From Candidatus Poribacteria bacterium (lineage in GTDB: Bacteria; Poribacteria; WGA-4E; WGA-3G): 64,000 nucleotides of DNA. Position numbers and translations under genes: made by a program. Below are positions 6,768 through 55,871 of this stretch, one piece after another (position 1 is the first letter of the stretch; each line of letters opens with the position of its first letter). The notes below the pieces were generated by a model. It worked only from the letters and a program-made list of their open reading frames with translations. It ran no database searches and was not told where the DNA came from. Location: positions 896,001-960,000 of the forward strand of contig CAXXUA010000005.1 in the NCBI GenBank assembly GCA_963663765.2, given 5' to 3'.

Positions 6768-6794
6768 TTATTATACCAACGTAATCGGGTATTC

Positions 6795-7079
6795 CTAATA
6801 TCTTCGTTTCTTCCGCGAAAGGATTATAAATATGAGGATAATCCCGCCGATGGTAATCCACAACCAATTATTTTTGAAAAAATCAAAGAATATGTTAAAT
6901 GCGATCCAAGCACCAACTTCAATAACAACTATTAGTATCGTCTTACCCCATGGAAAATCTGCATTATGTTGTTTACGTAACCTATCAGCAAATAACCATG
7001 AAATACCTAATGTGCCAACAACCACCACAAAAAATAGCAAATGAACGATGCCTTGGATGCCGCTCAAAAGTGCGTACAT
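6795..7079 (-). CDS. Small hypothetical membrane protein
   Basis: About three hydrophobic helices, basic C-terminus, AGGAG RBS upstream. Confidence 0.7.
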   Translation of the reverse strand: MYALLSGIQGIVHLLFFVVVVGTLGISWLFADRLRKQHNADFPWGKTILIVVIEVGAWIAFNIFFDFFKNNWLWITIGGIILIFIILSRKKRRY

Positions 7080-7163
7080 GTTTTTTCTCCTCTTTAGGTT
7101 TTGTTATAATAGAGTCACCATATCATAAAAAGATAGTGATACGTGCTGACACTAAAAAATCAT

Positions 7164-8012
7164 CTATTGATTGTGGATACGGTCAGGATGACTATAAACC
7201 GCCATACGTTCTCCTCGCATGAAACCGACTAACGTGAGATTTCCTTCATCTGCTAAGTCAACGGCAAGTGTAGAAGCAGCAGAAACGGCGGCAATGATAG
7301 GGATCCGAGCAAATAGTGCTTTTTGCACAATTTCAAAACTTGCACGTCCACTCACCATCAGAATGTGCTTTTCAAGAGGTAACATCTCCGATAGCAATGC
7401 TTGTCCGATAACCTTATCAACAGCATTATGCCTACCAATATCCTCTCTGACAATGAGAAGTTCACCATCTTCGTCAAAAAGCCCCGCTGCATGCAGTCCA
7501 CCTGTCTTTTCAAATACTGATTGTGCTGCACGTAACCGATCATTGAGTTTGTAAAACACACTTTGGTTTAATCGGAAAACAGAATTTATTGGATCGACTT
7601 GGAGTTTAACGGATTCAATTGTCATTTTACCGCAAAGTCCGCAGCTTGCATTTGCATGAAAGTTGCGCTGCCACCCTTGTTTCTCAAGGTCCAATCCGTG
7701 GACTAAACGCACATTGACGATATTTTGCATATTCGCAGAAAAATCATTCTGTTCGTTAGTTTTTGTTGTGGCATTATCATCTTCGCAATAGGCTATAATT
7801 TCAATGTCGTCTACGGATTTGATAAGACTTTCTGTATAAAGGAACCCCGCAGCAAGTTCAAAATCATGTCCAGGTGTTCGCATCACGACGATTAGACTCT
7901 GTTCTCCTACACGAATTTCAAGGGGTTCTTCAACAACTAATTCATCTTCAGCGCATGTCGGTTCTGATTGATGCCAGCGAGTCACCTGTTTTGTGCATGT
8001 TTGTTGTTGCAT
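7164..8012 (-). CDS. fdhD: Formate dehydrogenase accessory sulfurtransferase
   Basis: VEEPLEI, MRTPG, ASCGLCG, TGGLHAAG, EDIGRHNAVDK, SGRASFE. Confidence 0.95.
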   Translation of the reverse strand: MQQQTCTKQVTRWHQSEPTCAEDELVVEEPLEIRVGEQSLIVVMRTPGHDFELAAGFLYTESLIKSVDDIEIIAYCEDDNATTKTNEQNDFSANMQNIVNVRLVHGLDLEKQGWQRNFHANASCGLCGKMTIESVKLQVDPINSVFRLNQSVFYKLNDRLRAAQSVFEKTGGLHAAGLFDEDGELLIVREDIGRHNAVDKVIGQALLSEMLPLEKHILMVSGRASFEIVQKALFARIPIIAAVSAASTLAVDLADEGNLTLVGFMRGERMAVYSHPDRIHNQ

Positions 8013-8047
8013 GGTTAGCTAACTGATTTCTGATGTTGTCCAAAATG

Positions 8048-15209: not shown

Positions 15210-15701
15210 TTATCACATCCTCTAATTTGACAATAGAAATGACTATATCAGCAATCTGACAGAATAATTTATAGGCACAATCTGGCAGAATGTGCTACAA
15301 CTGCCCGCACAATCTGGAAGAATGTCTATTATTGGCGAAGGTATTGCACAATGCACTATAGTTAAAAGACAATAAAACAAAAAACTTTACATTTTACCCA
15401 AAATAACTTGACAAACACTATTATTTGTGTTACAATATATATTACATATCAGATATATAACATAATATATAAAATGACTTACATAAATGATAAATTTAGA
15501 AATGTTACACTTCTCCGAAAATATTATTTTTAAAATCCCGAAATTCACAATAAAAACACCTATATACCCTTACTACTACTGAATTTACAGCAAAACATAA
15601 AAAGTTACAAAAAACGAAGAAAGTGTCCATTTAGTAACTTTTGAAGGACGAATCACCCAAACAAAAACGCAAAATAAACAACATCATCTCGGACCAAACC
15701 C

Positions 15702-15730
15702 TTGCATTTAATGTCCAAACCCTATACAAT
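15702..15730 (+). promoter_or_regulatory. Sigma70-like promoter of the R-M gene, probably leaderless
   Basis: TTGCAT-17 bp-TACAAT; ATG 15737 follows 6 nt after the -10 box; no SD. Confidence 0.55.
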
Positions 15731-15736
15731 AAAAAT

Positions 15737-18700: not shown

Positions 18701-18817
18701 GATCGGAAAGGAGAAACGTTAAGTCATGAGGAGATCCGTCTATATCCTATGATTGTGGTTTCCATCACAGAAACACTACGGATGATGGAGGCAATAGAAT
18801 GGGTGCTTGAGTTTTAA
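15737..18817 (+). CDS. Single-chain restriction-modification enzyme: nuclease-like N-terminus, N6-adenine methyltransferase, type ISP-like specificity domain (type IIG/IIL-like)
   Basis: GRPDF...GYIEAE, GVFYTP, LDPATGTGGF, GNPPY, DDYVKFIRWA, DFPRIP, YQVCEKWLKDRKG; ORF track starts at TTG 15641, ATG 15737 preferred. Confidence 0.9.
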   Translation: MNFQKHYNQYIQEINQTRSDPNATPELSLHPHLKTFMEDVTADPDCFDIPNIIFTLEPRNINQIGRPDFIATNGLLPIGYIEAETYGADLTNLSGHAKQQNKRFKENLDNFVLTNFIDFELWIDGQCNTTARITDNIDDLAILLERFLKTSVQIGTPEALAKYLARRTRELQTQIATTLTDEESETFRMFTAFKETLLATLTPDEFADMYAQTLTYGLFAARCTQPNATNFSRYTAVGTLPKSNPFLIKLFYHVVSPQLETNVTYILDDIATLLQNVPTDMLRTAFTARNPLEDPVIHFYETFLKEYNPKLRFDRGVFYTPPQVISYIVRSVDVLLKTELNKPDGLADDDTIILDPATGTGGFLLSVLNHIREHVTTYYGTGDWNQYVNAQLVKRIFGFELLVAPYTIAHLKLSLFLQTQGWRADERLGIYLTNALEQPDEMQPPLPFAAFISDEANAALSVKRDEPLLVILGNPPYKRHSVNPSRVGRNLTFIGELIEDYKQVDGKPLDEATSKALQDDYVKFIRWAQWRIDKNGEGVIGYIVNNNFLDAPTTRGMRQNLLDSFNAIYVLNLHGSNRKTEAVPTSQGDENVFDISQGVSILLCIKQRDNLDATKVYHADMWGSREERYRTLSETDVQSTTWCELQPKSPYYLFVPQEMDYSAEYESGWKITDIFQTSSIGIVTARDNLTIHRTPEAIRETVTGFVSLSVDEAREQYRLPRDTRDWKVPLAQADLRNHPDAEQHIQPIYYRPCDTRWTYYTGRSRGFHCMPRPKNMPHLLKENLALCVCRVVANIKWQHALATDKITENRYVSNKGSESGHVFPLYLYPDSEGLLGSTEPELNFKPEFLTALSETLQLPQTPPFQLPEGIAPEQILAYIYAVLYSPTYRKRYYEFLKYDFPRIPLQQDIDEFCLLAEYGQELIDLHLLKDKNIPHRHLFEGEGDGVVSKLRYEDGNVWINNAQYFTNVPPEVWEYEVGAYQVCEKWLKDRKGETLSHEEIRLYPMIVVSITETLRMMEAIEWVLEF

Positions 18818-18941
18818 CTGTTGCAATACCACTCTAATTGACATATTATCAGTATGATGAATTTTGACGATCTGTTTTATAGAGGTTATTATGACTGAAA
18901 GACAATTATTATTTACTTTAGATAGTGATGCCTTCCAAGTC

Positions 18942-19185
18942 ATCTACAGACAGTAATTGAGGTGTACGCAAGTAAATTTTCCTTCGCTAATTCCAACGCT
19001 GGTACAGCTTACGAGCGGCAAAAAGAAGGGAACTCCTCCAAAAACTCGTCTAAGTCATCACCTGCTTCCAAATAGTCAATAAGGTTTTTGATGGGAACAC
19101 GCGTATTTTTGAAAACAGGTGTACCACTCATAATCCGCGGATTGCAAGTAATGATGTCTTTAAAAAACTGTTCGTCAAATTTCAT
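18942..19185 (-). pseudogene. DUF433 family protein with premature TAA at 19009-19011 (3' end approximate)
   Basis: NPRIMSGTPVFKNTRVPI...LEEFPS; frame continues AVPALELAKE beyond the stop. Confidence 0.75.
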
Positions 19186-19222
19186 GAGTACGTTTCTCTT
19201 TGAAGAAAAATCCGACAGCAAT

Positions 19223-19438
19223 TCAAGCAGATTTCCGCACCTCAAAAAGTTCATGCCGCAGCAGCATAAGTTGCGATGCTTGTAACGTCTCTAAAGCATA
19301 CGTCCGACCTTTGCGATCACAAAATTCAACTTAAAAGACATTCGATTCATATTCTTCAACAATAGTACCGATCTGTCCACGGCATAATTTGAGTGTTGGT
19401 AGGTCTTCTATGAGTGCAACCGTATCAAGTAACTTCAT
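19223..19438 (-). pseudogene. DUF4926 family protein with nonsense mutation (GAA to TAA at 19331-19333)
   Basis: Same length and highly similar to the intact copy at 21417-21632 (F*V versus FEV). Confidence 0.85.
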
Positions 19439-19493
19439 TAAGTTCTCCTGTCAAGCATCGTAGGACTTTGTACTGACCATTCAAAACGCAGAA

Positions 19494-19805
19494 TTAAGTG
19501 GCACCTTTTCTTTTCTTCTTTTCCCATTCTCTTGCATCTTCTCGCGTCGTGCGTCTTCCAACTTGGTGAACATAAACATCTTTACCGTAATCTCGTTGAA
19601 GTTCCTTTTCACGTCGGTGTAAGTCATTCGTAATTCCATTACGGATAATTTTGTCCCCTTGTTTAAGCTGGTATTTATAGGTATCCCGTTTGGGTTCTAT
19701 CTGGACTCCTCTTGCCTCAAGAACTTCCTTGACTGCTCGTTTTATTTTTGACCTTGGGATTTGTCCTCGCTTAGGAGGATATTTGACAATTCTCTGTCTT
19801 GACAT
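19494..19805 (-). CDS. Small basic protein with degenerate GIY-YIG-like domain
   Basis: TYKYQL...IIRNGITNDLHRREKE...AREWE; GGAGG RBS. Confidence 0.6.
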   Translation of the reverse strand: MSRQRIVKYPPKRGQIPRSKIKRAVKEVLEARGVQIEPKRDTYKYQLKQGDKIIRNGITNDLHRREKELQRDYGKDVYVHQVGRRTTREDAREWEKKKRKGAT

Positions 19806-19829
19806 TTTTAATCACCTCCATAGAATAGG

Positions 19830-20462
19830 TTATAGTTTGCTATTTGATTGAAGATCTAACCACTCTGCTATAGCAAAAATATAATCATTGAAGTACTCCA
19901 GGTCTTCAACTTCTAAACGAAGTCCCTGAACGACCTGAGGTAAATCGTTCAGAAAACTTTGGTAACGTTTCCAAATAATTCCACCACCTGGAATGGTCTG
20001 TCGATCCGATACGGTGAGAAGCCAATTTCGAACAACCCTTACCACTTCCTCAGGATTATTGTTATGCACAAAAATATCTTGACCGGAAATATCTGAAATA
20101 AACTTTTGATACCGATACGGTTCTCTATCCAACACAAGGCATTTTTTTGTTTTCTGTTCTTCTATACCGAATCTCTTTGCCCCAAGAAAAATTCCCAACT
20201 CTAAGGGCATGTTAAACCGAGGAAGACCTGAAGTCTCATCTAATTCCGTTCTGGATATATCATGAATCCCATAGCGGCAATCCTCAATAATGTTATAAAT
20301 CTTATCAATCCGAACTTGACTTGTGTCTCCTGCCTCAAGCGCACAACGGGCAATAAAACCGCAATCATGCACGGCAAATATCATTGCATCAAACAAAGGT
20401 TTGTAATCTGAGTCAAACGGACAATTAATAAAAACATTGTTATTATAATGGGTTGAATTCAT
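19830..20462 (-). CDS. TIR / nucleoside 2-deoxyribosyltransferase-like domain protein
   Basis: VFINCPFD, RIDKI...I..CRYGIHDIS, FNMPLELG, SDISGQDI pattern. Confidence 0.65.
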   Translation of the reverse strand: MNSTHYNNNVFINCPFDSDYKPLFDAMIFAVHDCGFIARCALEAGDTSQVRIDKIYNIIEDCRYGIHDISRTELDETSGLPRFNMPLELGIFLGAKRFGIEEQKTKKCLVLDREPYRYQKFISDISGQDIFVHNNNPEEVVRVVRNWLLTVSDRQTIPGGGIIWKRYQSFLNDLPQVVQGLRLEVEDLEYFNDYIFAIAEWLDLQSNSKL

Positions 20463-20570
20463 GAATTCCTACTCGTTTTACATAAGTAGAAGTTTTTTTG
20501 AAAACAATTTAGCACATTCTTTGTAAAGTATACCATAAATTTTATGAATTTTCAATCTTTTGGAAAACCC

Positions 20571-20753
20571 GGGTGTGTAAAGTTTTGGTTACTGTGCGTA
20601 GGGGCGGGGTCTCCCCGCCCGAACAGAAGTTTTACGCGGGCGAGGAGACCTCGCCCCTACGATGTCCACAGTTCCCTAACGTCAAGTAAGCTTTAATAGA
20701 AACTGGACGGACTTCTTTTAAAATCTGGGTTTCTACAAAAACTTTACACACCC
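20571..20753. mobile_element. MITE family A, empty 183-bp allele with GTAG REP doublet
   Basis: TIR gggtgtgtaaagtttt / aaaactttacacaccc; perfect 8-bp TSD gaaaaccc (20563-20570 and 20754-20761). Confidence 0.9.
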
Positions 20754-20772
20754 GAAAACCCAAATGCACCTT

Positions 20773-21390
20773 TCAGTTTGTATCAGTTACGGATTTGAAC
20801 ACAGAATCAACTGCCCCAAAAAGCGTGGATAAATTAGCCAAGGCAAAGTCTGTTCTGTTTTGCGTAAAGGTATCTCCGATAAGTCGTCCAAACTGCCATA
20901 ATGTTCCATCGGTGACAATACCGTACACGGGTAGGGCTGCGCCATCGTTCACTTTTTCAGCATTTATTTTTTGGGCGGCGACTAACTCCACCAGACATTG
21001 CCCCCATCCCTGCTCAAAGTCGTTTTTCTTCGCCTCAACGAGCAGTATCAACGGACTTCCAACAACGGTTTTGCCTAATTCAGATTTAGTAGAGATTAAA
21101 TAATCTGGTGTTCCGCTCAAAATGTCGTCGTAAGTGATGGTTTGCTTTATCCAAAGTGCGTATCGATCGGCATAGGCTTTATAACTCTCCTTCAAAACAG
21201 GAAAGATAATCGTCTCACACCGTGATGCTTCAGACGCAAAAACGTTGATATGTTCTCGGGTAAATTCAAAGTCTTGCAGAAACGCCATCGAAGGCGTTGC
21301 CGGTTCAGCTTCAACGAAGTCATCTTCCGCATAAGTGACTCTGAACTTTTCTTGTACCTCAGAGATTGTCTTAAAATCGCTAAACGCCAT
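20773..21390 (-). CDS. PD-(D/E)XK nuclease-like protein (type I restriction R N-terminal-like)
   Basis: SGTPDYLI...LVEAKK, GWGQC, YGIVTDGTLWQF. Confidence 0.75.
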   Translation of the reverse strand: MAFSDFKTISEVQEKFRVTYAEDDFVEAEPATPSMAFLQDFEFTREHINVFASEASRCETIIFPVLKESYKAYADRYALWIKQTITYDDILSGTPDYLISTKSELGKTVVGSPLILLVEAKKNDFEQGWGQCLVELVAAQKINAEKVNDGAALPVYGIVTDGTLWQFGRLIGDTFTQNRTDFALANLSTLFGAVDSVFKSVTDTN

Positions 21391-21416: not shown

Positions 21417-21632
21417 TTAAGCAGATCTCCGTTTTTCAAAAAGTTCATGCCGCAGCAGCATGAGTTGCGATACTTGTAACGTCTCTAAAGCATACGTGCG
21501 ACCTTTGAGATCGCAAAACTCAACTTCAAATACCTCCGGTTCATATACCTCAACAACAGTGCCGACCTGTCCACGGTATAATTTGAGTGTTGGTAGGTCT
21601 TCTATGAGTGCAACCGTATCAAATAGTTTCAT
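21417..21632 (-). CDS. DUF4926 family protein
   Basis: DTVALIEDL...RGQVGTVVEV...FEVEF..GRTYA; GGAG RBS before ATG 21632. Confidence 0.85.
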   Translation of the reverse strand: MKLFDTVALIEDLPTLKLYRGQVGTVVEVYEPEVFEVEFCDLKGRTYALETLQVSQLMLLRHELFEKRRSA

Positions 21633-21770
21633 TGGGTTCTCCATTACAAGTATACCTTATTCTAAACCTATCTGCAAATTATGATTGCTTATGGTGTTAC
21701 GGTACATAAGAGCGTGCCTACTACTTTTAAGTCGTGAGCTGGAGCTCACTCCTACATGAAGATGTAGTAA

Positions 21771-42471: not shown

Positions 42472-43686
42472 CTATTCATCTTCAACACGTTCAATAATCT
42501 CACCTGTTTCACGGTCTCTGTAGATGCGTTTCATCCTGCCGTCCGGCATCCGTTCATCCTTGAGATGAGCATAACGTTCATCCTCGTCAGATTGACCTGA
42601 ATGTACGTCAACAGTTTCATCTTCAGCTCGCCAGTCATCCAGTTCAACTGCTTCCCACTGTTTAGACTTCGCGGATTTGTAGCAAGCATCAATGATCGCA
42701 TTCACGACATAACCGTCGTAGAAGGTTTCCATTGGTTCTCTACCTTCGTCCATTGCATTGAACATATCAAGGAACATATCCCGATACCCGAGTTCAGCGA
42801 CCTCATCACCGACAGGAAAAAGCCAACCCGTGTCTCCTTCTGCTTTTTCAGCGACATAGCCACCTTGTCCGACTGCGGTGAACATCTCAAAACCTGTTCG
42901 GAGCCAGTGATTGAGCCAAATTGTGCCTTCGCTGCCAGAGACTTCATCGCGCAGATCCATACCACCACGAAATGCCCAACCGACCTCAAACTGTCCCATT
43001 GCACCGCTTTCAAACCGAATGAGCGCGATACCGTGATCCTCTGCATCAATTGGATGCACAAGCGTATCTGCCCAACACATCACTTCAAGCGGTTTGTTGT
43101 TCTTACCAACGAAATTCCGTATAATCTCTATACAATGGCATCCCATATCAACGATCGCACCGCCACCCGCTTGCTCCAAATCCCAAAACCAATCGCTATG
43201 CGGACCAGGATGTGTCTCACGAGAACGCACCCATAGGATTTTCCCGAGCGCTCCATTTTGAACAGACTCCAACGCCTTTATGGTTTTCGGAGGATACACT
43301 AAGTCCTCAAGATAACCACCAAAAACGCCTGCATTTTCAACAAGGTCAAGCATCGTTTTCGCTTCTTCCGCAGTGCGTCCGAGTGGTTTCGTGCAGAAAA
43401 TCGCCTTTCCCGCTGCCGCCGCAAGTTCAACAGCCTTCAGATGCAGGTTGTTCGGTAATCCGATAACAACTACATCCGTTTCTGGATGGTTGATCGCTTC
43501 TGCTAAATCTGTTGTTGCATTCGGAATGTCCCACTCTTTCGCAAAATCCATTGCGCGTTCCTCGCGCCGAGAGTACACAACATGCACGCGATCGGCACCA
43601 CGTTGATTGTGTAACGTCATCGTGTAAAACATTCCGATTAAACCCGACCCGAGCATAGTTACTTTATGGTTTTTATGTTCTGACAT
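42472..43686 (-). CDS. Gfo/Idh/MocA family oxidoreductase
   Basis: [28 protein letters not shown]; ATG 43686 with GGAG RBS preferred. Confidence 0.9.
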
Positions 43687-43751
43687 GCATTTCTCCATTA
43701 GAAGTGTTATTGTAAAGAGAAAGGGAAGGTTGTTGGACCTTTCCCACAATA

Positions 43752-44825
43752 TTATTCTGTTTTGTAGGTTGCAATCACACCCCAATCGTCTACCGTCCAG
43801 CAGTGGTTCTTATCTGTAGCATGCACTCCTTTGAGAGCACCACTCCCGCCAGCTTTCGTAGCAGTCCAGGTCATCCCACCATCTGTGGTATTCAAAACAG
43901 CACTATATTCTCCGACTGCCCAACCCACCATCTTATCCACAAACATAATATCATAGAGATTGTCAATTGAGTCAGTTTTCTGCTGTTTCCAAGTCTTTCC
44001 ACCATCGTTGGTATGCAGGATCAATCCCTCCTGTCCTGAAATCCATCCAGTTTTTTCATCGGCAAAATGGATACCGAACAAGTTGTTATCAAAACCAGCC
44101 TTCCGTTTTTCCCAATTTTCACCACCATCATTAGTATGCAAGAGTGTTCCATAAGAACCAATAATCCAACCTGTGGTCGGTGTAACAAACAATACATTCT
44201 CCAGATTGTTCCGTGTTTCCCCAACGCGCGCGCGTTCAGAACTACCGACCCATGTTTCACCACCATCGGTCGTTTTCAAAATTGCGTTTTCTGTTCCTAC
44301 GATAAAACCGACCTTTTCGCTGATCATCTGTATCCCCATCAAACTGGAACGTATACCACCTCTACGACGGTTATTATTATTTTGGTTTGCTGCTTGAGTT
44401 CTCGCCATTTTTCGATTCCAAGTTTTTCCACCATCTTCAGTTTTTAGTATCGTGCCTCTTGCACCTGTAAGAAAACCTATCTTCTCATTGACAAAATAGA
44501 TATTGTAAAGTGTTGGCAAACCACCTGGGGGACCTCCACCACCCGGTCTCTGTTCTGTCGTAGCACCTGCCGGACGCGTATTTATCTCTTTTTTCGTCCA
44601 AGTTTTCCCACCATCCACAGTAACAAGTATCAAACCTTTGTCTCCAACGACCATACCGTTTTGATTGTCCATAAAATGAACATCATGTAACATCCCTTCA
44701 ATACCATCACCACGAATAATATCGTCTTCTCTGAGTATCATCCACTTCCCATCAGCCGTCACAAGTAGAATCGGAATCGTGATGCCGACAATTACTAACA
44801 AAACAACAATAACTTTTCTGTTCAT
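43752..44825 (-). CDS. YCF48/BNR-repeat beta-propeller protein, exported
   Basis: Signal/TM segment; repeated L..V.F....GW..G..G.IL.T.DGG.TW. Confidence 0.88.
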
Positions 44826-44884
44826 GATTATCTCCTTCGTATATCCATTGCATATAAACTTTATGTCTATTTTAGAACTTACAA

Positions 44885-47071
44885 CTAAATCGCTTGAAAA
44901 TCTTCATATATCTGTCGTGCTTTGTTCTCAACATCTCTTAAATAAGTTTGACCAATTTGCGTTTTGTAAAGTTCGGTAAGCTCTCCACTGGTTTCACCAA
45001 AAGCTTTGGCGTATCTTCTGCATTCGTTTTTGTCAGGTCCTGAGGCGTAAGTTTTAGTTTTAGCATCTGTTCCAGACTTGCGGATTTCAACAAACATCTC
45101 TGCAAACTTTAGGTACGTGCCATCTCCAACAAATGTAACATTTTCAAGCATCGTGAAATCAAGCCCCGGCAGCGCATCTGAAAGGATAGCACGCGCTTCT
45201 TCCAAATCTATCTTTCCCTCACGCAGTGCAATAGCAATTCCGAGAAAGAATAGATCGTTTTTATCGCGTTTTGCTTCGCCTTCCTGCTTGGATGCGCGGA
45301 GTTTTTCTGGATTCGGTTCCGACTCATTGTAATAGGTAATATCTTCTCTCACATCACATCTTGCAGTGATTTTGCTCTCTTCAAAAATCGATGCAAGATA
45401 CTCAGACAAAGGTATATCCGCTTGTTTGCAGTGCGCAGCAAGTGCCGTGACTAACACCATAGACTCACCTGCAGATTTCTCCCGCATCGCTATAGCAGTC
45501 CTACCACCTTGGCTACGGATAAGTTCTTCAGGTCCGGTAATCATGCCGCCACTCTCTTCACCAGCAAAGATGAGACGTGGCTGCACACCAAGCGAAATCG
45601 TCTCACCGTAAACATCTTGGACAACAACGGGGGTATCTGGTTCATCGGCTATCTGCTTCTCAATTTTCTTCATGATTGCAGCGATCTCTTTGAAACCTAC
45701 AGGCACGTTAATCACATTCACCTCATTTGCAGCAGCCCATTGGTCCCAAGCAAGTGCGGATGGTGTGGTCTTTATCATAAACCGCGGATGTTCTCCCCAA
45801 AGACCAGCAGTTTTCAACTGTTTGGTATGGAAGTCCATTAACATCAGAAATGCTTGATTAGGCGTATAAATCGTAAGCAGTCGGTCATCATCAAACGTCA
45901 GAAATTCCACTCCGAGTTTTTGGAGATGTTCAGCACGCGAGGTCTCTTCTAATTGACACACAATTAACCGATCCCCATCCGGATCGGTCACTTCAACAAT
46001 TGTACCAATAGGTTGGTCCTTGAGTTTGGAAGCATAATCAGCAGATTGGACGACATCCAGAATGCTAAAATCGCATCCGAGGTCGTAAAATTCCTTCTCA
46101 CCTGTTTTCGGATTTCTGTCCAGTTTGCCGATGTTGTGGTAGAGTGGATCCGCTTCAACGTGAAGCCAACACACAGCGTTCGCTATCCCTAACCGCTCAA
46201 AAATCGCACGCATCGGACGATACATACACCCACCCACACAATCAACAACAATCGGAGGTTTCGTCTCGCGAATAAGGCTCAGGTTGGCATCTGTGGCAAC
46301 ACCGCTTTTGAGATAACCGACATATAGCTGCACGCCGTCGTGAAGTTCATCTAACCGTTCAAAGTCAATATGCTCATCGTTGACAGCACTAAACCGAATC
46401 GGATACCCATCCGTTTCTGCGATCTTGAGAATTGTCTCAATCTTCTTGACAAACTGCATAGACTCTTCGGGTAGGTATTGACTCCCTTGATTATTTAGGT
46501 CCTTGGTCGCATTCTTGGTGCTAACAGAATGGCTTGATGTGACATGCTCACCCCCATCCAAATCAAGCATGAATATAAGGAACGATGCCATCCAAATCGG
46601 CAACGTGCCAAACCCTTTCGGTACATAAGTCCGTATCTCTTGTGCTGCTTGAACCCGAGCAATAAACTCAACATATTTCTGTGAGTTATATCGCACCTCA
46701 CAACCCGCAAGTTTCTCTACGGTTTTCCCATCGGATTTCTCCTTCGCAACGAGACTTTTTCCAAGTGTCGCTAAGATGATACCAACCTGATTGATCGGAA
46801 AGCGCGTATCCCACGGATACAGAATGTTTTGGGGACCACGTATACCTGCGGTTGATACTTGTGCCTCTTTCGCATAGTTGCCAAACCATTCCCATAGATT
46901 CAACCGTTCAATCAATTCCTTGTTGAGTAGGAATGTAAATGCATCGGGTTCGTCCTGAAGAAAAAGTGGAGATTTGATTGAGTCAGGGGTGTTTTGTTCA
47001 ACAACTGCCAAGAGTTGCTGTTCTGTTCTGTTTCGTTTTTCAAGGGACGCTGCGTCTACAGCAATAACCAT
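44885..47071 (-). CDS. Atypical alpha-D-phosphohexomutase (PGM/PMM superfamily)
   Basis: STAGIRG, TSSHS, DPDGDR, PVGFK, GEESGG, RKSGTD. Confidence 0.8.
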   Translation of the reverse strand: MVIAVDAASLEKRNRTEQQLLAVVEQNTPDSIKSPLFLQDEPDAFTFLLNKELIERLNLWEWFGNYAKEAQVSTAGIRGPQNILYPWDTRFPINQVGIILATLGKSLVAKEKSDGKTVEKLAGCEVRYNSQKYVEFIARVQAAQEIRTYVPKGFGTLPIWMASFLIFMLDLDGGEHVTSSHSVSTKNATKDLNNQGSQYLPEESMQFVKKIETILKIAETDGYPIRFSAVNDEHIDFERLDELHDGVQLYVGYLKSGVATDANLSLIRETKPPIVVDCVGGCMYRPMRAIFERLGIANAVCWLHVEADPLYHNIGKLDRNPKTGEKEFYDLGCDFSILDVVQSADYASKLKDQPIGTIVEVTDPDGDRLIVCQLEETSRAEHLQKLGVEFLTFDDDRLLTIYTPNQAFLMLMDFHTKQLKTAGLWGEHPRFMIKTTPSALAWDQWAAANEVNVINVPVGFKEIAAIMKKIEKQIADEPDTPVVVQDVYGETISLGVQPRLIFAGEESGGMITGPEELIRSQGGRTAIAMREKSAGESMVLVTALAAHCKQADIPLSEYLASIFEESKITARCDVREDITYYNESEPNPEKLRASKQEGEAKRDKNDLFFLGIAIALREGKIDLEEARAILSDALPGLDFTMLENVTFVGDGTYLKFAEMFVEIRKSGTDAKTKTYASGPDKNECRRYAKAFGETSGELTELYKTQIGQTYLRDVENKARQIYEDFQAI

Positions 47072-47197
47072 TACTATACTCCGAAATAGGTTTTGCGGTT
47101 ATTATAGCATATACTGTAGATTTTGTGGGAGATAATTTGATGGGATTTATTGGGTTGGTATCAGTTGAGGGCAGTTTGGCGAGATGCCACTTTTTCG

Positions 47198-47614
47198 TTA
47201 GTTTTTCCAATCCTCCAAACGCAATCCCAACTCAATTATTCTTTCGTAATCGGAATCAGAAGCAACAAGAATTGCATCAAGAGTTAAAGCTGTCGCAGCA
47301 ATCCAAAGGTCGCCTTCACCTAAAGGCGTCCCTTGTTGTTCAGCAGCAACTTTTATCTGTGCATAGACCTCGCTAACCCTCTCTGGAATTGGGTCACACG
47401 GAACTGTAGCAAATAGTTCATTTGCTCTTTGTTCAAGGTCTTGTTTTCTTTTTCCTGCGGGTAGTCGACCAATTCCGAATAGAATTTCACCCTTAACGAT
47501 GGGACAAGTAAAATGGTAATCCGACTCAGTCAGAGAATCAAAACGCCCTTTTACTCCAGGATTATCCTGCATCAACAAACTACATGTTGATGTATCCAAG
47601 AGATATTTATTCAT
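47198..47614 (-). CDS. vapC: VapC PIN-domain toxin
   Basis: YLLDTS, IVKGEILFG, GDLWIAATAL, LVASDSDY, EDW. Confidence 0.92.
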   Translation of the reverse strand: MNKYLLDTSTCSLLMQDNPGVKGRFDSLTESDYHFTCPIVKGEILFGIGRLPAGKRKQDLEQRANELFATVPCDPIPERVSEVYAQIKVAAEQQGTPLGEGDLWIAATALTLDAILVASDSDYERIIELGLRLEDWKN

Positions 47615-50331
47615 TATTTATTACTTTTATCCGAATCAAAGGGCGAATCAAACTTTATAGGTATTTCCCCCTCTTTTATTGACTGATTGAGTGCTTCAAT
47701 GTCTCCATCAGTGAGATACGGTGGCTTATCCATCGCTTTGATGAGACGTTGTGCTGTAGGATTTTTTCTTTTTGTATGGTCCTGATTCTGATCTGATTCT
47801 GTCCAAGTGCGGAACTGCTGTAAAATTTCAGGTCCCACTCTGACTGAAACAGCGGGATGTACTGCAAGTAGAATCTGACCGATTTTTTTCTTACCAGTTT
47901 CACTACTCTTACAGACTTGTTCTATTTCTGGCACTGTAACCATAGGCATTTTTAATGCTGCGCGAAATTTTATTTTTTCAAGCCACTGTGCAGAAAGTAG
48001 TCCTGCTAAACCTGTCACAACAGGGTCTAGCCATGTTAATTTATTAATGACAGCTTGTGCAATGAATGCATGTGCATAAAAAAGGTGTTTTGGATCCGTT
48101 TTGCTATTATAAACGATCTTAAATGCTGCTACAAGCCGTTCCATAGGTTCGGTATCTTGTGCTTCTATCATTGTTAAAACGTTGTTTTGTTCTCTCAATA
48201 ACGTCGTTTCAATCAAATCAAGAGCAGAAAATACTTTTTCTTTTATAGGTAGTTCAGACGAATTTGTACGCCATATAGATAGCATTTCATGTGTATCACT
48301 GTCTGTCCGCATTCTAACAATAAGCGCAGCAATAAAAATTGCAATGATGTTATCAGCAGAGGCAAAGTCGGACAGATCAGAATTAGTTATAGGATAAGTT
48401 CCTTTTTCCGCAGCTCCTCTATCGCTTTGTTGGTGTTTCTTCATTGAACTAAATACTTGCGCTAACTGATATATTTGTTGTGGTAGATTATCAAAAGTCT
48501 TGTTTTTAAAATCATATTGTGCTTTAAGGATAACAAGGGAAAAGTCCAATATTGGATGTTTTTCTTTGTCTTTCATTTGTAAGGCATGTTGAAAAACTGT
48601 CGTCTCATGCCCAAATCTGTACTCAATTTGCGCTAAAGAGAGCCAAGAATATCCTATAGGAGAATCAGGTAAATCTAAAACTTTTTCGTTAGTCTCCGTA
48701 TTGCTACAGAAACCTGCAGAAGGTTCAGTAAGTTCTGAAGATTTATTTTCAAGTCCGCACCATATCATCCATATCCATTTTATAGTGTAATCTAATCGTT
48801 TCTTTAAAGTGAAATACTGAAGGTCTGTATTGTCTTGAGATAGTGTCTCAAAATCTCGCAACGCAAGATGCATAAATTTTATGCAGTTCAACATATTACC
48901 TGACTTAAAGTAAGCAAATCCCGCATCTGTATACAAACTGATATATCTTTCGGTGTTTTCAATCTCTTGAGTTTTATTAGCTCCCTCTTCAAAAAAGCGA
49001 GCTGCTTTCTTCCAATCGTCCAAGTAAGCTGCACATATAGCGGCTCTGCGATATTCCTCTAAGGGGCCAATGTTTACTTGACCTGAAGGTGGATTCCATT
49101 TTGGAAGAATACGTTCGTAAATATTGAGCGCGTCTTTGTAATGTTTCTGATTAAAGTATACGACTGCTTGTGCTTCTTCTATCGTTGGTAAAGTACCAAG
49201 TTTTAATGTAATATCTTGAAGAACTTTATGAGCGGTATTTGGGTCGCTCAATTTTTCGTCATGGGTGATGGCTTTAATTCTTGCTGATGCAGCAGCAATA
49301 TATGGATAACCCCATGCAATAGTTTTTTCAATTACTTTATCAAAAACTTCAAGGCATCTTGTCCAATTAGGATTTTCAAGTTTTTCCTCTGTTAACCAAA
49401 TTCCATTAATCAAAAGTTGGGATTCAATGTTATCATTCTCAAAGTCAGCCAATAATAACGTTCTAATTCTTGGATCAAGTTCATCCAGTGTATCAATAAG
49501 TTCATTGAGGAAAACAGCGTTGATTTCTGGACGCATATAGATAAAACTAAATAGGAAACTGAAATAGTTTGATTTTTTAATGTTGTATTCTTCCAATTGT
49601 CCCATGGAAATATGATATTCTTCCCAGAGCTCTTTATCCCTGTCTCTGATATCGATCATTTCTTTAAGGTAACCTACCAACTTCTTGGCTGGTAGTGTCA
49701 CTTGATTATATTTTAATATCTCTGTTGCCAGCATTAGACGAGATAGAAGATATGACTGGTGTGGTTCATAAGGTTTGGTTTCCTTATCCCAAATTTCAAG
49801 TATCTTTGGAACTAATTCTGGCTTCACCTCAACGGCAATGCGATATTGCATTGACCGAAATAGTTGATTTACAAACGCATAGCCAGGGAATAATTCTTCA
49901 GGAGGATTGGTTTTAATGTTTGTAATCCATGAGAATTCTTGACAAATATTTTCCCAATCATCCTCTGGAGCGGTTAGTAATGATCTTATGGCAGCTATAA
50001 TCCTTTCTTCATCTTGATCATGTGTGCTTTGTATTGGAGATTGGATAGCAATATCAGATAAACCACTAATAAATAACATATTAGTAGAATCAGGCAATTT
50101 AGTATGAGTCGCGTGCATACGCGGATGTTGTAAATACTGACTAGAAATCCTTTGTGTTGTTTGTTCCTCACCTTTCAGATAAAGGAATTCATCACCAGCA
50201 CAGTCTAACTGCACATTTGCAAGGACGACAAGTGGATAGTCCCCTTGTAAAGGATAATTTACTTGATGCATAGTATCTGCATGGTGCATTATCTTTCTCT
50301 CCCGACACAAACTAAATGGTTTACTCGGCAA
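47614..50331 (-). CDS. Large TPR/helical-repeat protein with antitoxin-like C-terminal tail (start uncertain)
   Basis: TPR-like motifs (AVVYFNQKHYKDALNIYE, AAICAAYLDDWKKAARFF, AGFAYFKSGN); TAATG coupling to vapC. Confidence 0.65.
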   Translation of the reverse strand: MPSKPFSLCRERKIMHHADTMHQVNYPLQGDYPLVVLANVQLDCAGDEFLYLKGEEQTTQRISSQYLQHPRMHATHTKLPDSTNMLFISGLSDIAIQSPIQSTHDQDEERIIAAIRSLLTAPEDDWENICQEFSWITNIKTNPPEELFPGYAFVNQLFRSMQYRIAVEVKPELVPKILEIWDKETKPYEPHQSYLLSRLMLATEILKYNQVTLPAKKLVGYLKEMIDIRDRDKELWEEYHISMGQLEEYNIKKSNYFSFLFSFIYMRPEINAVFLNELIDTLDELDPRIRTLLLADFENDNIESQLLINGIWLTEEKLENPNWTRCLEVFDKVIEKTIAWGYPYIAAASARIKAITHDEKLSDPNTAHKVLQDITLKLGTLPTIEEAQAVVYFNQKHYKDALNIYERILPKWNPPSGQVNIGPLEEYRRAAICAAYLDDWKKAARFFEEGANKTQEIENTERYISLYTDAGFAYFKSGNMLNCIKFMHLALRDFETLSQDNTDLQYFTLKKRLDYTIKWIWMIWCGLENKSSELTEPSAGFCSNTETNEKVLDLPDSPIGYSWLSLAQIEYRFGHETTVFQHALQMKDKEKHPILDFSLVILKAQYDFKNKTFDNLPQQIYQLAQVFSSMKKHQQSDRGAAEKGTYPITNSDLSDFASADNIIAIFIAALIVRMRTDSDTHEMLSIWRTNSSELPIKEKVFSALDLIETTLLREQNNVLTMIEAQDTEPMERLVAAFKIVYNSKTDPKHLFYAHAFIAQAVINKLTWLDPVVTGLAGLLSAQWLEKIKFRAALKMPMVTVPEIEQVCKSSETGKKKIGQILLAVHPAVSVRVGPEILQQFRTWTESDQNQDHTKRKNPTAQRLIKAMDKPPYLTDGDIEALNQSIKEGEIPIKFDSPFDSDKSNK

Positions 50332-50695
50332 TTAATATTTGTATTTTGGACACCCTAAATTCACCCACCTTTATCCCCCTGAAAGCGAGGGGAAGGGACT
50401 TTTTGGTTTTTTCTGTCCGTTCTATATATAATAAAATATAATAAATGTTTAGCGAGTAAATCACTAAAGGGTGTGAAATTAGACATTATACAAACTATTT
50501 ATACATTGGCAACTTGAGTATATCACATTATCAGGCAAAAATCAAGACACCCTGCAGACTATATCTACTCCAAAATCAGATTCTCATACATATCAACTAT
50601 CCTTAAACATTAAGATTTCTTGATTTACTTAGCAAAATTATGTACAATATCTTATCAGTAACATGACAAATTCAAAGGCAAAAATGGAGGTCATG

Positions 50696-50887
50696 ATGAA
50701 GACTTTAGTGGTAACAGAAGAAATTTGGAAAGAGGGTAATATGTACACCGCCTATTGCCCAGAATTAGACGTTGCAAGTTGCGGAAAGGATATTGAAGAA
50801 GCGCGAAATAACCTTCTTGAAGTAATTGAAATTCAGTTAGAAGAAACAGCAAAACTCGGCACACTCAAGGCTTTTTTTAACATATAA
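50696..50887 (+). CDS. HicB-family antitoxin, probably C-terminally truncated
   Basis: KEGNMYTAYCPELDVASCG..IEEARNNL.E; GGAGG RBS; no hicA partner. Confidence 0.75.
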   Translation: MKTLVVTEEIWKEGNMYTAYCPELDVASCGKDIEEARNNLLEVIEIQLEETAKLGTLKAFFNI

Positions 50888-50890
50888 AAG

Positions 50891-50986
50891 CTTATACCAA
50901 ATTAACGTAATTTATCTTTTTCCAACGGTAGGTGCGGTTTCCTAACCGCACACTTAGCAAGACGACTCACGTTAATTCGGTATTAG
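50891..50986. mobile_element. Small MITE with GTAG REP-like hairpin
   Basis: TIR cttataccaaattaacgt / acgttaattcggtattag; internal gtaggtgcggtttcctaaccgcac. Confidence 0.65.
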
Positions 50987-51019
50987 TCCCTCCTACACGT
51001 TTCGGAGAACGGTTTTACT

Positions 51020-51863: not shown

Positions 51864-52054
51864 AAACATCAATCTTCGGTTGACCCAATGATAGAGTTTC
51901 GGTTATTATAATATATGTGTCAAATTTGGGATAGGCAGCAGCGTGAAAATGAATTACGGATTATCACAGTTTCGTAAAGTCAACACAGGTTAGTCATTTT
52001 GCGTTGAACCGTTCAGTCAAAATATATTTACGCAACTTACTTTATGAGGCAAAT

Positions 52055-53950
52055 ATGAAAAAACTAAACCTATATGTAATACTGATTTTTATCTGTTTTC
52101 ACCTTTTGTTAGCATATAGTTTTGCACAGGATTATACCCGTTTGCAACTACCAGAAGGAGCCATCGCACGTTTGGGAAAAGGAAAATTATTTGAGATAAA
52201 ATATTCACCCGATGGCAACCAAATTGCAGTTGCAACTGCAATCGGAATCTGGTTTTATGATACTGCTACCGGTGCCGAATTAGCACTCCTCACCGGACAC
52301 ACAGAGAGTATTGAATGCATTGCCATTAGTCCAGATGGAAAGACTTTGGCGTCAGGCAGCAACGACAACACCATCATGCTATGGGACATAGAGACACGCA
52401 CACGAAAAGCAACCCTTGTTAGACATTTAGATGATGTTCGGTCCCTTGCTTTCAGTCCAGATGGAAATACCCTCGCAAGTACCAGTGAAGATGCAACAAT
52501 TAATCTGTGGGACGTTCAGACTGCAAAACATAAAAGAACAATAACCGGACATGCCAATTGGGGTAGGGCAGTTGCTTTCAGTCCCGATGGAAGTATCCTC
52601 GCAAGTGCAAATCATGATGCTACCATCCGACTTTGGGACGCAAACACAGGAACACATCTAAGAACGTTCTCAGGACATGAACGAGCTGTAACCTCTATCG
52701 CCTTTAGTCCGGATGGAAAAACGATCTGCAGTGGGTGCGACGACGGCTCTGTCGGCTTGTGGGAAACAAGTACTGGCAAGAATATACAAATCATGATGAA
52801 GCATACATGGTACGTCGTTTCGGTCTCGTGTTCACCGGATGGAAAGACATTCGCAAGTGGTAGTTGGGACAATGAGATTTATATGTGGAACACCGAAACA
52901 GGTGAACATGTGAAGACACTATCTGGACATACAAATCATGTCGTATCGGTCGCATATTCACCGAAAGGTGACACGCTCGCAAGTGCAAGTTACGACGGTA
53001 CAGTTCGCTTGTGGCATCCTCGCACCGGCAATGAAAAAAATATATTTGTTGGACATACTCGTGATGTGAAAACTGTCGCATTTTCTCCTGATGGAAACAC
53101 ATTGGCAAGTGGAAATTCTGCAACCACCATACATCTATGGGACTCAACCACAGGTGCATATAAAAACACGCTTATCGGACACTCACAGACAGTTGGTGCA
53201 ATCGCATTTTCTCCCGATGGATCAACACTCGCAAGCGGTAGTTGGGATAATACGATTCGTCTATGGGATCCTCAAACCGGACGAGAAAAACAGGTAATCG
53301 CTGAACATTGGAATAATGTCGCATCAGTAGCTTTTTCCCCTGATGGCACCATGCTCGCGAGTGGAAGTTATGACCAGACAGTCCGTTTATGGAACGCACA
53401 CACAGGTGAACCCTTGCAGACACTCAATGGACATATTGCTAATGTTAGGGCTGTCGCATTTTCACCTGATGGCAAGACACTCGCAAGTGGCGATGGAGCT
53501 AACAAAATCCTCTTTTGGGATCCAAAAACAGGACAAACGCAGTTGATGTCGTCTGTTCAACGCATACTCAATAGACCTGTGATGCATTCTGGGGATATTA
53601 CGGGACTCGCCTACAGTCCTGATGGATCAACACTTGCAAGTGCAAGCGATGACCAAACAATCGGTTTATGGAACGCACAAACAATGAAAAATAAACAGAT
53701 GTTACGTGGACACACAAGGTATGTCTTATCTGTGGCTTATGCGCCGCAAGGAGATATGATCGCAAGCTGCAGTTGGGACAAGATTATACGTTGTTGGGAC
53801 CCAAAAACTGGAAAGCACAAAACCGGGTTCATTGGACACACTGGCTATGTCTTGTCGGTTGCGTTCTCACCTGATGGAAAACTCCTCGCAAGTGGAAGTT
53901 CTGATGGAACGGTGCTATTATGGGATATGTCAAAATTAAAAACCAAATAG
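52055..53950 (+). CDS. Secreted WD40-repeat protein
   Basis: Signal peptide, LPEGAIARLGKG cap, about 13-14 GH...FSPDG..LASGS.D..I.LWD repeats; ATG 52055 with GAGG RBS. Confidence 0.93.
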   Translation: MKKLNLYVILIFICFHLLLAYSFAQDYTRLQLPEGAIARLGKGKLFEIKYSPDGNQIAVATAIGIWFYDTATGAELALLTGHTESIECIAISPDGKTLASGSNDNTIMLWDIETRTRKATLVRHLDDVRSLAFSPDGNTLASTSEDATINLWDVQTAKHKRTITGHANWGRAVAFSPDGSILASANHDATIRLWDANTGTHLRTFSGHERAVTSIAFSPDGKTICSGCDDGSVGLWETSTGKNIQIMMKHTWYVVSVSCSPDGKTFASGSWDNEIYMWNTETGEHVKTLSGHTNHVVSVAYSPKGDTLASASYDGTVRLWHPRTGNEKNIFVGHTRDVKTVAFSPDGNTLASGNSATTIHLWDSTTGAYKNTLIGHSQTVGAIAFSPDGSTLASGSWDNTIRLWDPQTGREKQVIAEHWNNVASVAFSPDGTMLASGSYDQTVRLWNAHTGEPLQTLNGHIANVRAVAFSPDGKTLASGDGANKILFWDPKTGQTQLMSSVQRILNRPVMHSGDITGLAYSPDGSTLASASDDQTIGLWNAQTMKNKQMLRGHTRYVLSVAYAPQGDMIASCSWDKIIRCWDPKTGKHKTGFIGHTGYVLSVAFSPDGKLLASGSSDGTVLLWDMSKLKTK

Positions 53951-53966
53951 ACTAAAGAGTGTGATT

Positions 53967-55871
53967 ATGAAAAACCTAAAATGCATTACGCTGCTAATAA
54001 TCGTTGTTTGTCTAATATCGGGAACATTCTGTTATTCCCAAGAATATACAAAATGGCATTTACCTGAAGGGGCAAAACAACGTTTTGGAAAAGGAATTAT
54101 AAGAGAAGTCGCATTTTTCCCTGATGGGAAAAAACTTGCTATCAGTAGTTCAATCGGTATCTGGATTTATGATGTAAATACAGGTGAAGAACTTGATCTG
54201 CTTACAGATAGTTGGCACGATACCGATTCAATTGTGATTAGTCCGAAAGGTGATATACTCGCAACTGCAATTGGAAACAAAGTCCAACTGTGGAATACAA
54301 CCGAAAAGAACCTAATTGATACATTCATAGGACACAGATCTGATATTTATTCATTGGCAATGAGTTCAGATGGGAAAACACTCGTAAGTGGAAGTGCTGA
54401 TACGACTATTCGAATATGGGATACAACGACAGGAAAAGCAGGTTCCGCACCTATAGTAAACACCGAAGCCGTCCGTTCATTGGCATTTTCACCAGCAGGG
54501 AACACACTCGTAAGTATATCAGAAACGGATGAAAGCACAATACAATTATGGAACTTAGACAGCGGAGAGAATGTGTTAAATATCTTTCCAAGGATAGGCA
54601 GAATCTATTCAATTGCGTATTCTCCAGAGGGTTCCATAATAGCCACTGGAAGTTGGAACGGTAGAATCCATTTATGGAATCCGAGTACTGGCGAACTCCT
54701 AAACACCTTATCAGAACATGCAAGCCGTGCAACGACATTAGATTTCTCACAGGATGGCAAATACTTAGTCAGTAGCGGATTAGACTTTAGAATAAATGTG
54801 TGGAATTTAGAAACCAATATGTTGGTGAATACATTCAGAGACGTTTCAATTTTCTTCAATAATGTTGCCATTTCACCTGATGGCAAACTGATAGCCGGTA
54901 CAAGTAGTTTAAATGGGGTAATTCGCTTGTGGGACATGCAGACCGGGAACATCGTTAAAACCATCACTGGACATACAAAGTACATCAGATCCGTCGCGTT
55001 TTCACCAGATGGAGCATCTGTCGCTTATCCCAATAGAGTTGATAACGTCATCATTCTCCGGGATGTCCAAACTGGAGAAATACAAAAAACACTAACGGAA
55101 GGGACAGGTACACCCTATTCGGTTATGTTTGCACCTAATGGTGAAATACTTGCATCGGGTAATTGGTATGGACAAATCGTTTTATGGAATGTGCAAACAG
55201 GAGAACCAATAAAGAGACTCATTGGACATACAAGGAATGTACCTACCCTTGCATTTACGCCTGATGGATCAACACTGATAAGTGGCAGTTGGGACTATAC
55301 AATCCGATCTTGGGATGTTCAAACCGGTGTTGTCAAAAAAGCAATCCCTGTATATCAGTCAAATATTGATACGGCCAACTACAAGGTACAATCCATAGCC
55401 ATCAGCCCAGATGGTAATACATTCGCCTACGCCTCTGAGGCACAAAATATACGGTTATGGGATATACTCATGAAAGAACCAAAAGAAGAGCTAATAGGAC
55501 ATAACGGAGCTGGCGCAAGCGTTGCGTTTTCTCCAAATGGAACTATCCTTGCAAGTGGTAGTTTTGACGATACTGTAATAATTTGGGAAGCAGAAACTGC
55601 GAATCTGTTAAATACCTATAGAGAACCAACTTCATATAACGTTTATAGTGTTGCGTTTAGTCCAGACGGCGACACAGTTGCAGGTGGTAGTAATAAGGTT
55701 ATACGAATGTGGGATACCATGACAGGAAAAAACATGCTATCACTAACAGGACACACAGATTGGGTGCGTTCTGTTACATTCAGTCCTGATGGTCGTACCC
55801 TTGCCAGTGCATCTTCAGACGGCACAGTGATTCTTTGGGATGTGTCTAATAACCTACACACAAAAAACTGA
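53967..55871 (+). CDS. Secreted WD40-repeat protein
   Basis: Signal peptide, LPEGAKQRFGKG cap, multiple WD40 repeats. Confidence 0.93.
   Translation: MKNLKCITLLIIVVCLISGTFCYSQEYTKWHLPEGAKQRFGKGIIREVAFFPDGKKLAISSSIGIWIYDVNTGEELDLLTDSWHDTDSIVISPKGDILATAIGNKVQLWNTTEKNLIDTFIGHRSDIYSLAMSSDGKTLVSGSADTTIRIWDTTTGKAGSAPIVNTEAVRSLAFSPAGNTLVSISETDESTIQLWNLDSGENVLNIFPRIGRIYSIAYSPEGSIIATGSWNGRIHLWNPSTGELLNTLSEHASRATTLDFSQDGKYLVSSGLDFRINVWNLETNMLVNTFRDVSIFFNNVAISPDGKLIAGTSSLNGVIRLWDMQTGNIVKTITGHTKYIRSVAFSPDGASVAYPNRVDNVIILRDVQTGEIQKTLTEGTGTPYSVMFAPNGEILASGNWYGQIVLWNVQTGEPIKRLIGHTRNVPTLAFTPDGSTLISGSWDYTIRSWDVQTGVVKKAIPVYQSNIDTANYKVQSIAISPDGNTFAYASEAQNIRLWDILMKEPKEELIGHNGAGASVAFSPNGTILASGSFDDTVIIWEAETANLLNTYREPTSYNVYSVAFSPDGDTVAGGSNKVIRMWDTMTGKNMLSLTGHTDWVRSVTFSPDGRTLASASSDGTVILWDVSNNLHTKN

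Follow-up and report, generated by a model that had tools for sequence, protein, structure and literature searches.

A vapC toxin gene translationally coupled to a truncated Avs3-like STAND gene with a putative VapB-type antitoxin tail in Candidatus Poribacteria

In classical type II toxin–antitoxin (TA) pairs a labile antitoxin releases its toxin, and in CapRel(SJ46) a single polypeptide is reported to detect a phage protein as well as to mask a toxin. Among Avs proteins, for their part, none is known to us to have an antitoxin tail or to be coupled with the gene of a toxin. The present analysis concerns a locus that touches on all three: a vapC gene which directly follows, and overlaps, a large gene related to the Avs3-like STAND receptors. 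It lies in a 64,000-nt stretch from Candidatus Poribacteria (GenBank assembly GCA_963663765.2, contig CAXXUA010000005.1, positions 896,001 to 960,000), which as a whole is called the window and provides the coordinates used below.

The locus resembles type II VapBC pairs (FitAB, the Shigella and Leptospira VapBC) in having a PIN toxin of ~135 aa with its acidic residues intact, an antitoxin gene that lies immediately upstream and overlaps the toxin start, and a neutralising element that is proposed to sit at the antitoxin C-terminus and is predicted to be disordered when alone. It differs from them in that the putative antitoxin is an 891-aa protein of the immune-receptor type (1424–1522 aa in its long alleles), without DNA-binding domain (AbrB, RHH, HTH or Phd) and with a tail that matches no VapB family. 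With CapRel it shares the idea of a single polypeptide sensing a phage protein, putatively here, and masking a toxin; unlike in CapRel, toxin and antitoxin are separate open reading frames (ORFs) with a stop codon between them, and the toxin is a PIN RNase. As to Avs3 (8dgc), the long alleles have the same order of Cap4-type nuclease, STAND NTPase and helical-repeat sensor, and the window protein keeps the C-terminal helical-repeat sensor (the solenoid of residues 92–833 in the AlphaFold2 model). The window allele, however, lacks the NTPase and the N-terminal effector, of which only a disordered remnant is left, and the sensor solenoid of the Poribacteria family gives only generic tetratricopeptide repeat (TPR) matches.

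Two further systems are close in genetic logic. The hyperpromiscuous antitoxin domains of Panacea/NetFlax, as presented in PMC10440598, are likewise modular neutralising elements with many partners, but the logic is reversed: here toxin and tail are constant, and what changes is the partner at the N-terminus (STAND, ATPase, TPR or small domains). PezAT-Hachiman, according to an excerpt of PMC13064477, also ties a type II TA module genetically to an anti-phage system of which it is not the main effector; there the TA module is a separate part of the operon and represses expression, whereas here the antitoxin would be fused in frame to the receptor. The PIN domain is named as an effector domain of NTPase conflict systems in PMC7159879, the consulted portion of which mentions no antitoxin fusion. 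Full-text literature searches returned no description of a STAND or Avs protein that ends in an antitoxin or is coupled to a VapC, and the locus is apparently a variant, not yet described, in which type II VapBC is combined with an NLR-like receptor.

The elements of the locus are as follows (residue numbers refer to the 891-aa version of the large protein).

47198..47614, minus strand: vapC, gene of a 138-aa PIN-domain toxin (ORF list, Pfam PIN)
47612..47616, minus strand: TAATG stop/start overlap, translational coupling (sequence)
47614..50331, minus strand: large ORF, 905 codons from a TTG (ORF list)
47617..47790, minus strand: C-terminal tail, residues 834–891, putative VapB-type neutralising segment (alignment, AlphaFold2, co-occurrence)
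47791..50016, minus strand: TPR-like alpha-solenoid, residues 92–833, sensor domain of the STAND family (BLASTP, AlphaFold2)
50017..50289, minus strand: disordered 91-aa N-terminal remnant (BLASTP; AlphaFold2 pLDDT, the confidence score of the model, ~23; dN/dS, the ratio of non-synonymous to synonymous substitution rates, 0.61)
50290..50331, minus strand: possible 14-codon N-terminal extension from the upstream TTG (ORF list; the database call begins at the ATG)

VapC matches the Pfam PIN model (PF01850) with an E-value of 9.9e-12 and a score of 46 bits, the cut-off being 23.6. In NCBIfam it comes closest to the models of tRNA(fMet)-specific VapC, scoring below the model cut-offs, and the closest solved chains are VapC 6nkl, FitB 2h1o and Shigella VapC 3tnd. 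Residues E43, D102 and D122 do not vary among 23 orthologues, of which 18 have D and five have E at position 7. The stop codon of the large ORF and the start of vapC have one base in common, and the ORF list of the window contains no small antitoxin ORF between the two genes. The overlap and the lack of a small upstream antitoxin gene had both been pointed out in the initial annotation, made by a model from the sequence alone, and both are seen in the ORF list and the sequence. The same annotation had called the large gene AT-rich and its product a TPR/helical protein without a Walker A motif. The first of these descriptions is borne out by a G+C content of 0.34–0.39 over positions 47500–50999 versus 0.42–0.49 over the compared stretch 42500–47499, and a regular-expression scan of the large protein finds no Walker A pattern. 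As for the domain, the helical solenoid is recovered by AlphaFold2, whereas the TPR matches in the sequence are weak and sub-threshold (TPR_2 in Pfam, E 1.8e-4, 21.8 bits for a cut-off of 27).

The database gene call (P0001) starts the large protein at the ATG at 50289 and gives it 891 aa. In its AlphaFold2 model, residues 92–833 form an all-helical solenoid with a confidence mostly above 85 and residues 1–91 are disordered (pLDDT about 23). The tail (last 58 residues) is modelled at low confidence, with short helices at 844–854 and 861–872 and a disordered end, which is what one would expect if the segment acquires its fold on contact with a partner. Foldseek searches with this model returned generic TPR superhelices only, with no Avs sensor among the matches.

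The nature of the gene became clear from its longer relatives. A word-indexed search gave 433 relatives. Among the best 120, at least 14 other proteins of 879–898 aa cover 96–100% of the query at 60–73% identity, all intact and of the same architecture as the window protein, and many proteins of ~1420–1515 aa cover 88–89% of it at up to 80% identity, with precomputed DUF4926, Cap4 nuclease and NACHT/nSTAND domains; the relatives belong, among the matches listed, to Candidatus Poribacteria. The long alleles (1424–1522 aa) consist of an optional DUF4926, a Cap4/LmuA-like nuclease, a STAND P-loop NTPase, a TPR-like solenoid of ~740 aa and the tail of ~55 aa. Pfam detects DUF4926 (in some), Cap4_nuclease, nSTAND3/NACHT and, weakly, TPR in these long forms, and PADLOC reports them as LmuA/DUF4297. 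The PADLOC Avs models match neither the short form nor any of seven long or distant relatives, and no PADLOC model at all matches the short form or VapC. AlphaFold2 modelled the N-terminal 710 residues of one long form with a pLDDT of 91.8. Among the Foldseek matches of this model, Avs3 in complex with terminase ranks highest (8dgc, E 5.5e-11); Apaf-1, MalT, CED-4 and plant resistosomes come next.

When the window protein is aligned by BLASTP to the long form P0003, its residues 41–89 match residues 324–374 (E 1e-11), which are the linker joining nuclease and NTPase in the long forms, and its residues 92–891 match residues 709–1508 at 80% identity, collinear with the first match. Residues 375–708 of P0003, i.e. 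the NTPase, have no counterpart in the window protein. No further nuclease or NTPase remnant was found in the window or elsewhere in its genome, which is 97.8% complete, nor does that genome contain a long allele able to supply the NTPase. Because of this deletion map, together with the Avs3 match of the long form, it is near-certain that the window gene is a deletion allele of an Avs3-like STAND gene, of a family specific to Poribacteria, from which the nuclease body and the entire NTPase were lost by in-frame deletions. We file its product as a derivative of the Avs3-like family fused to a VapB-type tail and as a member of neither family, since it has neither the DNA-binding domain with which canonical VapB proteins regulate their own expression nor the NTPase and effector that define Avs. 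The comparison suggested at the outset, whether homologues are longer at the N-terminus and keep the tail and vapC, was decisive: the long forms have a nuclease and a STAND NTPase there, and they retain both. The possibility also raised then, that of a truncated STAND gene fused by chance to a vapB, is right in its first half and wrong in its second, the tail being ancestral to the truncation and kept in 25 full-length genes.

Nor is the fusion a peculiarity of one assembly, an outcome that would have spoken against it. Runs from three studies have contigs that extend across the tail/vapC junction as well as across the two deletion junctions, and the 14 other short proteins have the same architecture. 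A contiguous short-form N-terminus is found in two of 176 species-representative genomes, the window's own (G000) and G098, both of the same genus; a scan of metagenomes with this N-terminus gave 110 pattern matches, none of which was confirmed.

The tail itself is present in all of 11 aligned proteins (eight short and three long) as a nearly invariant stretch of ~50 residues with the motifs AQRLIK, PPHLT and FDSPF. An exhaustive HMMER search collected 820 cluster representatives, among which distant relatives of ~1350 aa align only up to query residues ~835–850, where their own C-termini lie. Because these relatives end where the tail begins, the tail is, to judge by the alignments, an addition made within the Poribacteria clade, and its presence in short and long forms alike places the fusion before the truncation.

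The link between tail and vapC was surveyed at 39 loci of related genes in species-representative genomes. At 23 of them vapC directly follows the STAND gene, and at least 16 of these 23 genes are intact, with 1424–1522 aa. The STAND frame ends without the tail at seven loci (L030, L033, L034, L035, L038, L039 and L040), none of which has vapC. The remaining class, tail DNA without vapC, comprises nine loci, where the tail is in frame at two (L013 and L020), out of frame behind a stop or frameshift at six (L027, L028, L031, L032, L036 and L037), and fused to a piece of VapC at one (L010, which keeps an 18-residue vapC remnant only). At this last locus (tail ORF 6764–8509) the tail runs directly into the final ~15 VapC residues owing to an in-frame deletion, which removed the toxin and left a fused relic.

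A census was then made from the toxin side. VapC homologues were collected at E-values up to 1e-30 and tail-coding sequence was sought by tblastn (E up to 1e-3) within 250 bp upstream, the ORFs being picked as anchored on the tail. Homologues were present in 78 of the 176 genomes of the phylum, the window's own included; the other 77 provide 94 vapC places. Tail-coding sequence lies at most 250 bp upstream of vapC at 92 of the 94, and 87 of these 92 tail ORFs stop at a distance of -8 to +2 nt from where vapC starts. What precedes the tail varies widely: 25 of the upstream ORFs are full-length STAND genes, two encode ~900 aa, eight encode 224–1163 aa and 54 at most 216 aa, while two are cut by the contig end and three places have no tail ORF. 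Places whose VapC is at least 68% identical (group A, 46 places) hold the 25 full-length genes and the two of ~900 aa, along with six truncated or frameshifted genes (224–1163 aa), ten small ORFs (95–216 aa), one cut by the contig end and two places without a tail ORF. Of the ~900-aa pair, G098 shares the architecture of the window and G035 has different deletions. Where VapC identity is 45–64% (group B, 48 places), small ORFs dominate (44, against two large proteins, one contig-cut ORF and one place without tail ORF); they are mostly stand-alone proteins of 88–130 aa with a recognisably homologous tail.

A search by the tail alone recovered 19 small proteins. When examples were compared with Pfam and NCBIfam, the N-terminal partners of the tail proved unrelated to one another:

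DUF4926 (Pfam E 3e-22)
AF2212-like, alone or with a HicB-like stretch recognised by eye (E 1e-7)
DUF2281 and TA_VapB, both weak (E 0.006–0.03, below cut-offs)
L149:4081-5601, plus strand: AAA_21/AAA_15 ATPase with a MADS3-like match, 507 aa, directly before a vapC paralogue
L150:3835-5601, plus strand: protein of 589 aa with 13 canonical TPRs, directly before a vapC paralogue

In several of the small proteins a STAND N-terminus (the DUF4926 part, or a lysine-rich start that reaches as far as the nuclease) passes straight into the tail, and tblastn revealed more in-frame internal deletions, for instance of the type in which residues 10–117 are joined to 1018–1508 (581–587 aa). Internal deletion is thus a repeated event, and start and tail are spared. 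Other STAND genes are split by insertions of ~1.2–1.3 kb, the last fragment still having the tail and preceding vapC. Three loci illustrate this variety. At L018 (=L101) there are two insertions of about 1.2–1.3 kb and the last fragment keeps tail and vapC. L169 (G100:C1:2456500-2463500) has one insertion of ~1.2–1.3 kb in a STAND gene with the tail kept and no vapC downstream. At L009, a mini gene (3408-3838), in which a STAND N-terminus meets the tail by way of a frame change, is followed on the same contig, after ~1.3 kb, by a full-length STAND-tail gene (5138-9394) that has its vapC.

Because the tail is the only constant partner of vapC, it is read as the toxin-neutralising segment of a VapB-type antitoxin, and the window protein would very probably be a giant antitoxin for VapC. 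The initial annotation had proposed such a role from size and character; it is supported here by comparison of sequences, the tail being the sole element common to the ORFs that abut vapC, absent together with it, and decaying upon its loss. From comparative genomics we infer physical binding and neutralisation: the tail would wrap and inhibit VapC, and coupled translation would supply the tail-bearing protein and the toxin together. As the antidote would be encoded by the last ~55 codons, cells carrying vapC would have to keep an expressed frame open into the tail, which amounts to addiction. Such a requirement would explain why decayed alleles have lost interior parts but not the start, the tail or vapC. 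Taken as a package, i.e. an Avs3-like deletion allele with the tail as antitoxin and addiction holding the two together, this is the account that we consider likely, and for addiction in particular as the force preserving the gene we lean, with somewhat less assurance, to the same side.

Several observations weigh against this account. The tail has no match in Pfam or NCBIfam, and its profile gives chance-level matches only against the PDB; a DNA-binding domain of the canonical VapB type was sought in the 905-aa protein with both collections and none appeared at E-values up to 1. At L013 and L020 the tail is intact and in frame although vapC is lacking, so that it is not always lost with the toxin gene. 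The census genomes are kin, and the counts given above are consequently descriptive, neither independent events nor a statistical test. Finally, addiction alone does not predict the low dN/dS of the sensor (0.31).

This last value was obtained by the Nei-Gojobori method from the two short alleles with available DNA, which gave 0.31 for the sensor, 0.28 for the tail and 0.61 for the N-terminal remnant. Since ten long-long pairs range from 0.20 to 0.33 in the sensor, the short-allele sensor looks, by this estimate, as constrained as that of full-length genes, and its value is half that of the remnant. The figure is an argument for a different explanation, put forward already in the initial annotation, possible in our opinion and no stronger than that, according to which the toxin is gated by the sensor: the solenoid would bind a phage protein, VapC would be freed or exposed, and the short allele would be an NTPase-independent defence in which the tail still acts as antitoxin. 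The lack of a long allele in the window's genome fits this explanation, as do the at least 14 other intact short forms, the fusion of the tail to the 13-TPR protein and to the defence-type AAA_21/MADS3-like ATPase, and the mosaic of sensor segments between alleles, which is of the kind seen in diversifying receptors. The mosaic also weakens the argument, as follows. In the trees made from two segments of the sensor, short forms are scattered among long ones, with supported branches that force at least three changes in residues 92–560 and at least seven in 561–833 (the second tree being the product of a quick search only); monophyly of the short forms in the sensor was rejected on account of these forced changes in both trees. 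Because all eight aligned short forms share the same N-terminal remnant, we read this as exchange of segments between short and long alleles by recombination. If so, part of the constraint may stem from the long-allele background, in which the low dN/dS may have arisen. Moreover, since the tail has to be translated, frameshifts and stops at any point of the frame are already selected against on that account alone, and frame integrity is thereby enforced. Also unfavourable to sensor gating are the many alleles with a destroyed or deleted sensor that keep tail and vapC, which indicates that the sensor is dispensable for the pair, and the restriction of the short form to the two genomes mentioned. 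In the sensor of the window protein, residues ~600–760 (alignment columns ~1230–1390) contain cassette-like variable segments combined differently between short and long alleles, a pattern that fits the conflicting segment trees.

Doubtful, though compatible with the preceding explanation, is that the pair serves as a guard or back-up device without any ligand sensing, VapC firing once the supply of the antitoxin-bearing protein ceases or the protein is degraded, as upon phage shut-off of host expression or an attack on the receptor. This would be the classical type II behaviour mentioned at the beginning. It agrees with the predicted disorder of the tail, with the overlap that gives coupled, stoichiometric synthesis, and with the maintenance of the pairing across many unrelated N-terminal partners; a large folded solenoid, on the other hand, may make the antitoxin long-lived.

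A more general scheme combines elements of both, and we put it forward as a tentative one. A clade of NLR-like receptors would carry a C-terminal type II antitoxin peptide, with VapC parked on the receptor and loosed either when a phage protein is engaged or when the receptor is destroyed; sensor-only alleles would be NTPase-independent fusions, and the tail a portable 'toxin leash' placed on other sensors as well, namely the TPR protein and the AAA_21 ATPase.

NLR-type receptors can recruit separate effectors via short adaptor modules, and the long alleles have a nuclease effector in addition to VapC. The tail could by analogy be an adaptor that recruits VapC as a second effector, active only in the oligomerised receptor, so that the pair in the truncated allele would be an inert relic. 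We regard this as improbable: the stand-alone tail proteins of group B (88–130 aa, among 44 small ORFs) occupy the canonical antitoxin position before a paralogous vapC, and the minis produced by internal deletion keep the tail, which fits neutralisation and not recruitment to an absent receptor. That the gene is a pseudogene or an assembly artefact of a full-length STAND gene is hardly credible, for although it lacks two domains of its relatives, several of which are broken by frameshifts or by the ~1.2–1.3-kb insertions, its 891-codon frame is open, the same junctions recur in G098 and in 14 protein clusters and are bridged by contigs from the three studies, and dN/dS is well below 1.

Coming back to the antitoxin account, if the tail is the antidote, then a classical TA pair is coupled both physically and genetically to an NLR-like immune receptor. 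The family offers a natural allelic series (full receptor, NTPase-less receptor, fragments, and minis of ~80–160 aa) in which only start, tail and vapC are always kept, and which would be a readable record of TA addiction acting on a host gene. A module of ~55 residues is seemingly all that a protein needs in order to be paired with this VapC; it makes testable the role of chromosomal TA pairs beside defence genes, as well as the gating of a toxin by a sensor without NTPase.

The surroundings of the pair call for a few remarks. Upstream of the large gene, a consensus scan found the following site, by pattern match only:

50485..50512, minus strand: promoter-like site, TTGCCA, 16 nt, TATAAT, 11 of 12 positions

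It is 150–200 nt upstream of the start of the large gene, and the number of such sites in the region is not above that in shuffled sequences. Further upstream, at 50663–50887 (plus strand), is a divergent 74-aa ORF with a weak UPF0150/HicB-like match below the cut-off (E 0.0017).

DUF4926, which is found at the N-terminus of roughly half the long STAND forms, also occurs in the window as a stand-alone gene at 21417–21644 (minus strand, 75 aa, Pfam E 2.7e-26) and as a second, DUF4926-like stretch with two stops at 19238–19453 (minus strand). A preprint (10.64898/2026.08.28.747851) proposes that DUF4926 is the immunity partner of a BECR RNase. A second TA pair at the N-terminus, in which the toxin belonging to DUF4926 would be encoded upstream of the long forms, was considered and dropped: at the one locus considered, L003, the gene upstream of the STAND gene does not encode a small DUF6883-type toxin and has, by eye, a Gfo/Idh/MocA-like N-terminus.

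About 26 kb from the pair, positions 15641–21390 of the window have the aspect of a defence island, with a 1058-aa Type ISP restriction-modification protein (Type_ISP_C, E 3e-85), a DUF433 protein (19009–19254) and two proteins of 205–210 aa without Pfam matches. At 52004–55871 (plus strand) there are two tandem WD40 beta-propeller genes, of 648 and 636 aa, with signal-peptide-like starts. On the downstream side, a conserved gene of ~540 aa (135 aa in L003), starting with MPTLEFKGK or a close variant, comes after the pair in at least nine loci (L003, L004, L007, L011, L015, L017, L018, L019 and L020), about 220–470 nt after the stop of vapC or of the STAND gene; in the window and in L008, L016 and L025, the pair is followed instead by a PGM/PMM-like gene of 728 aa.

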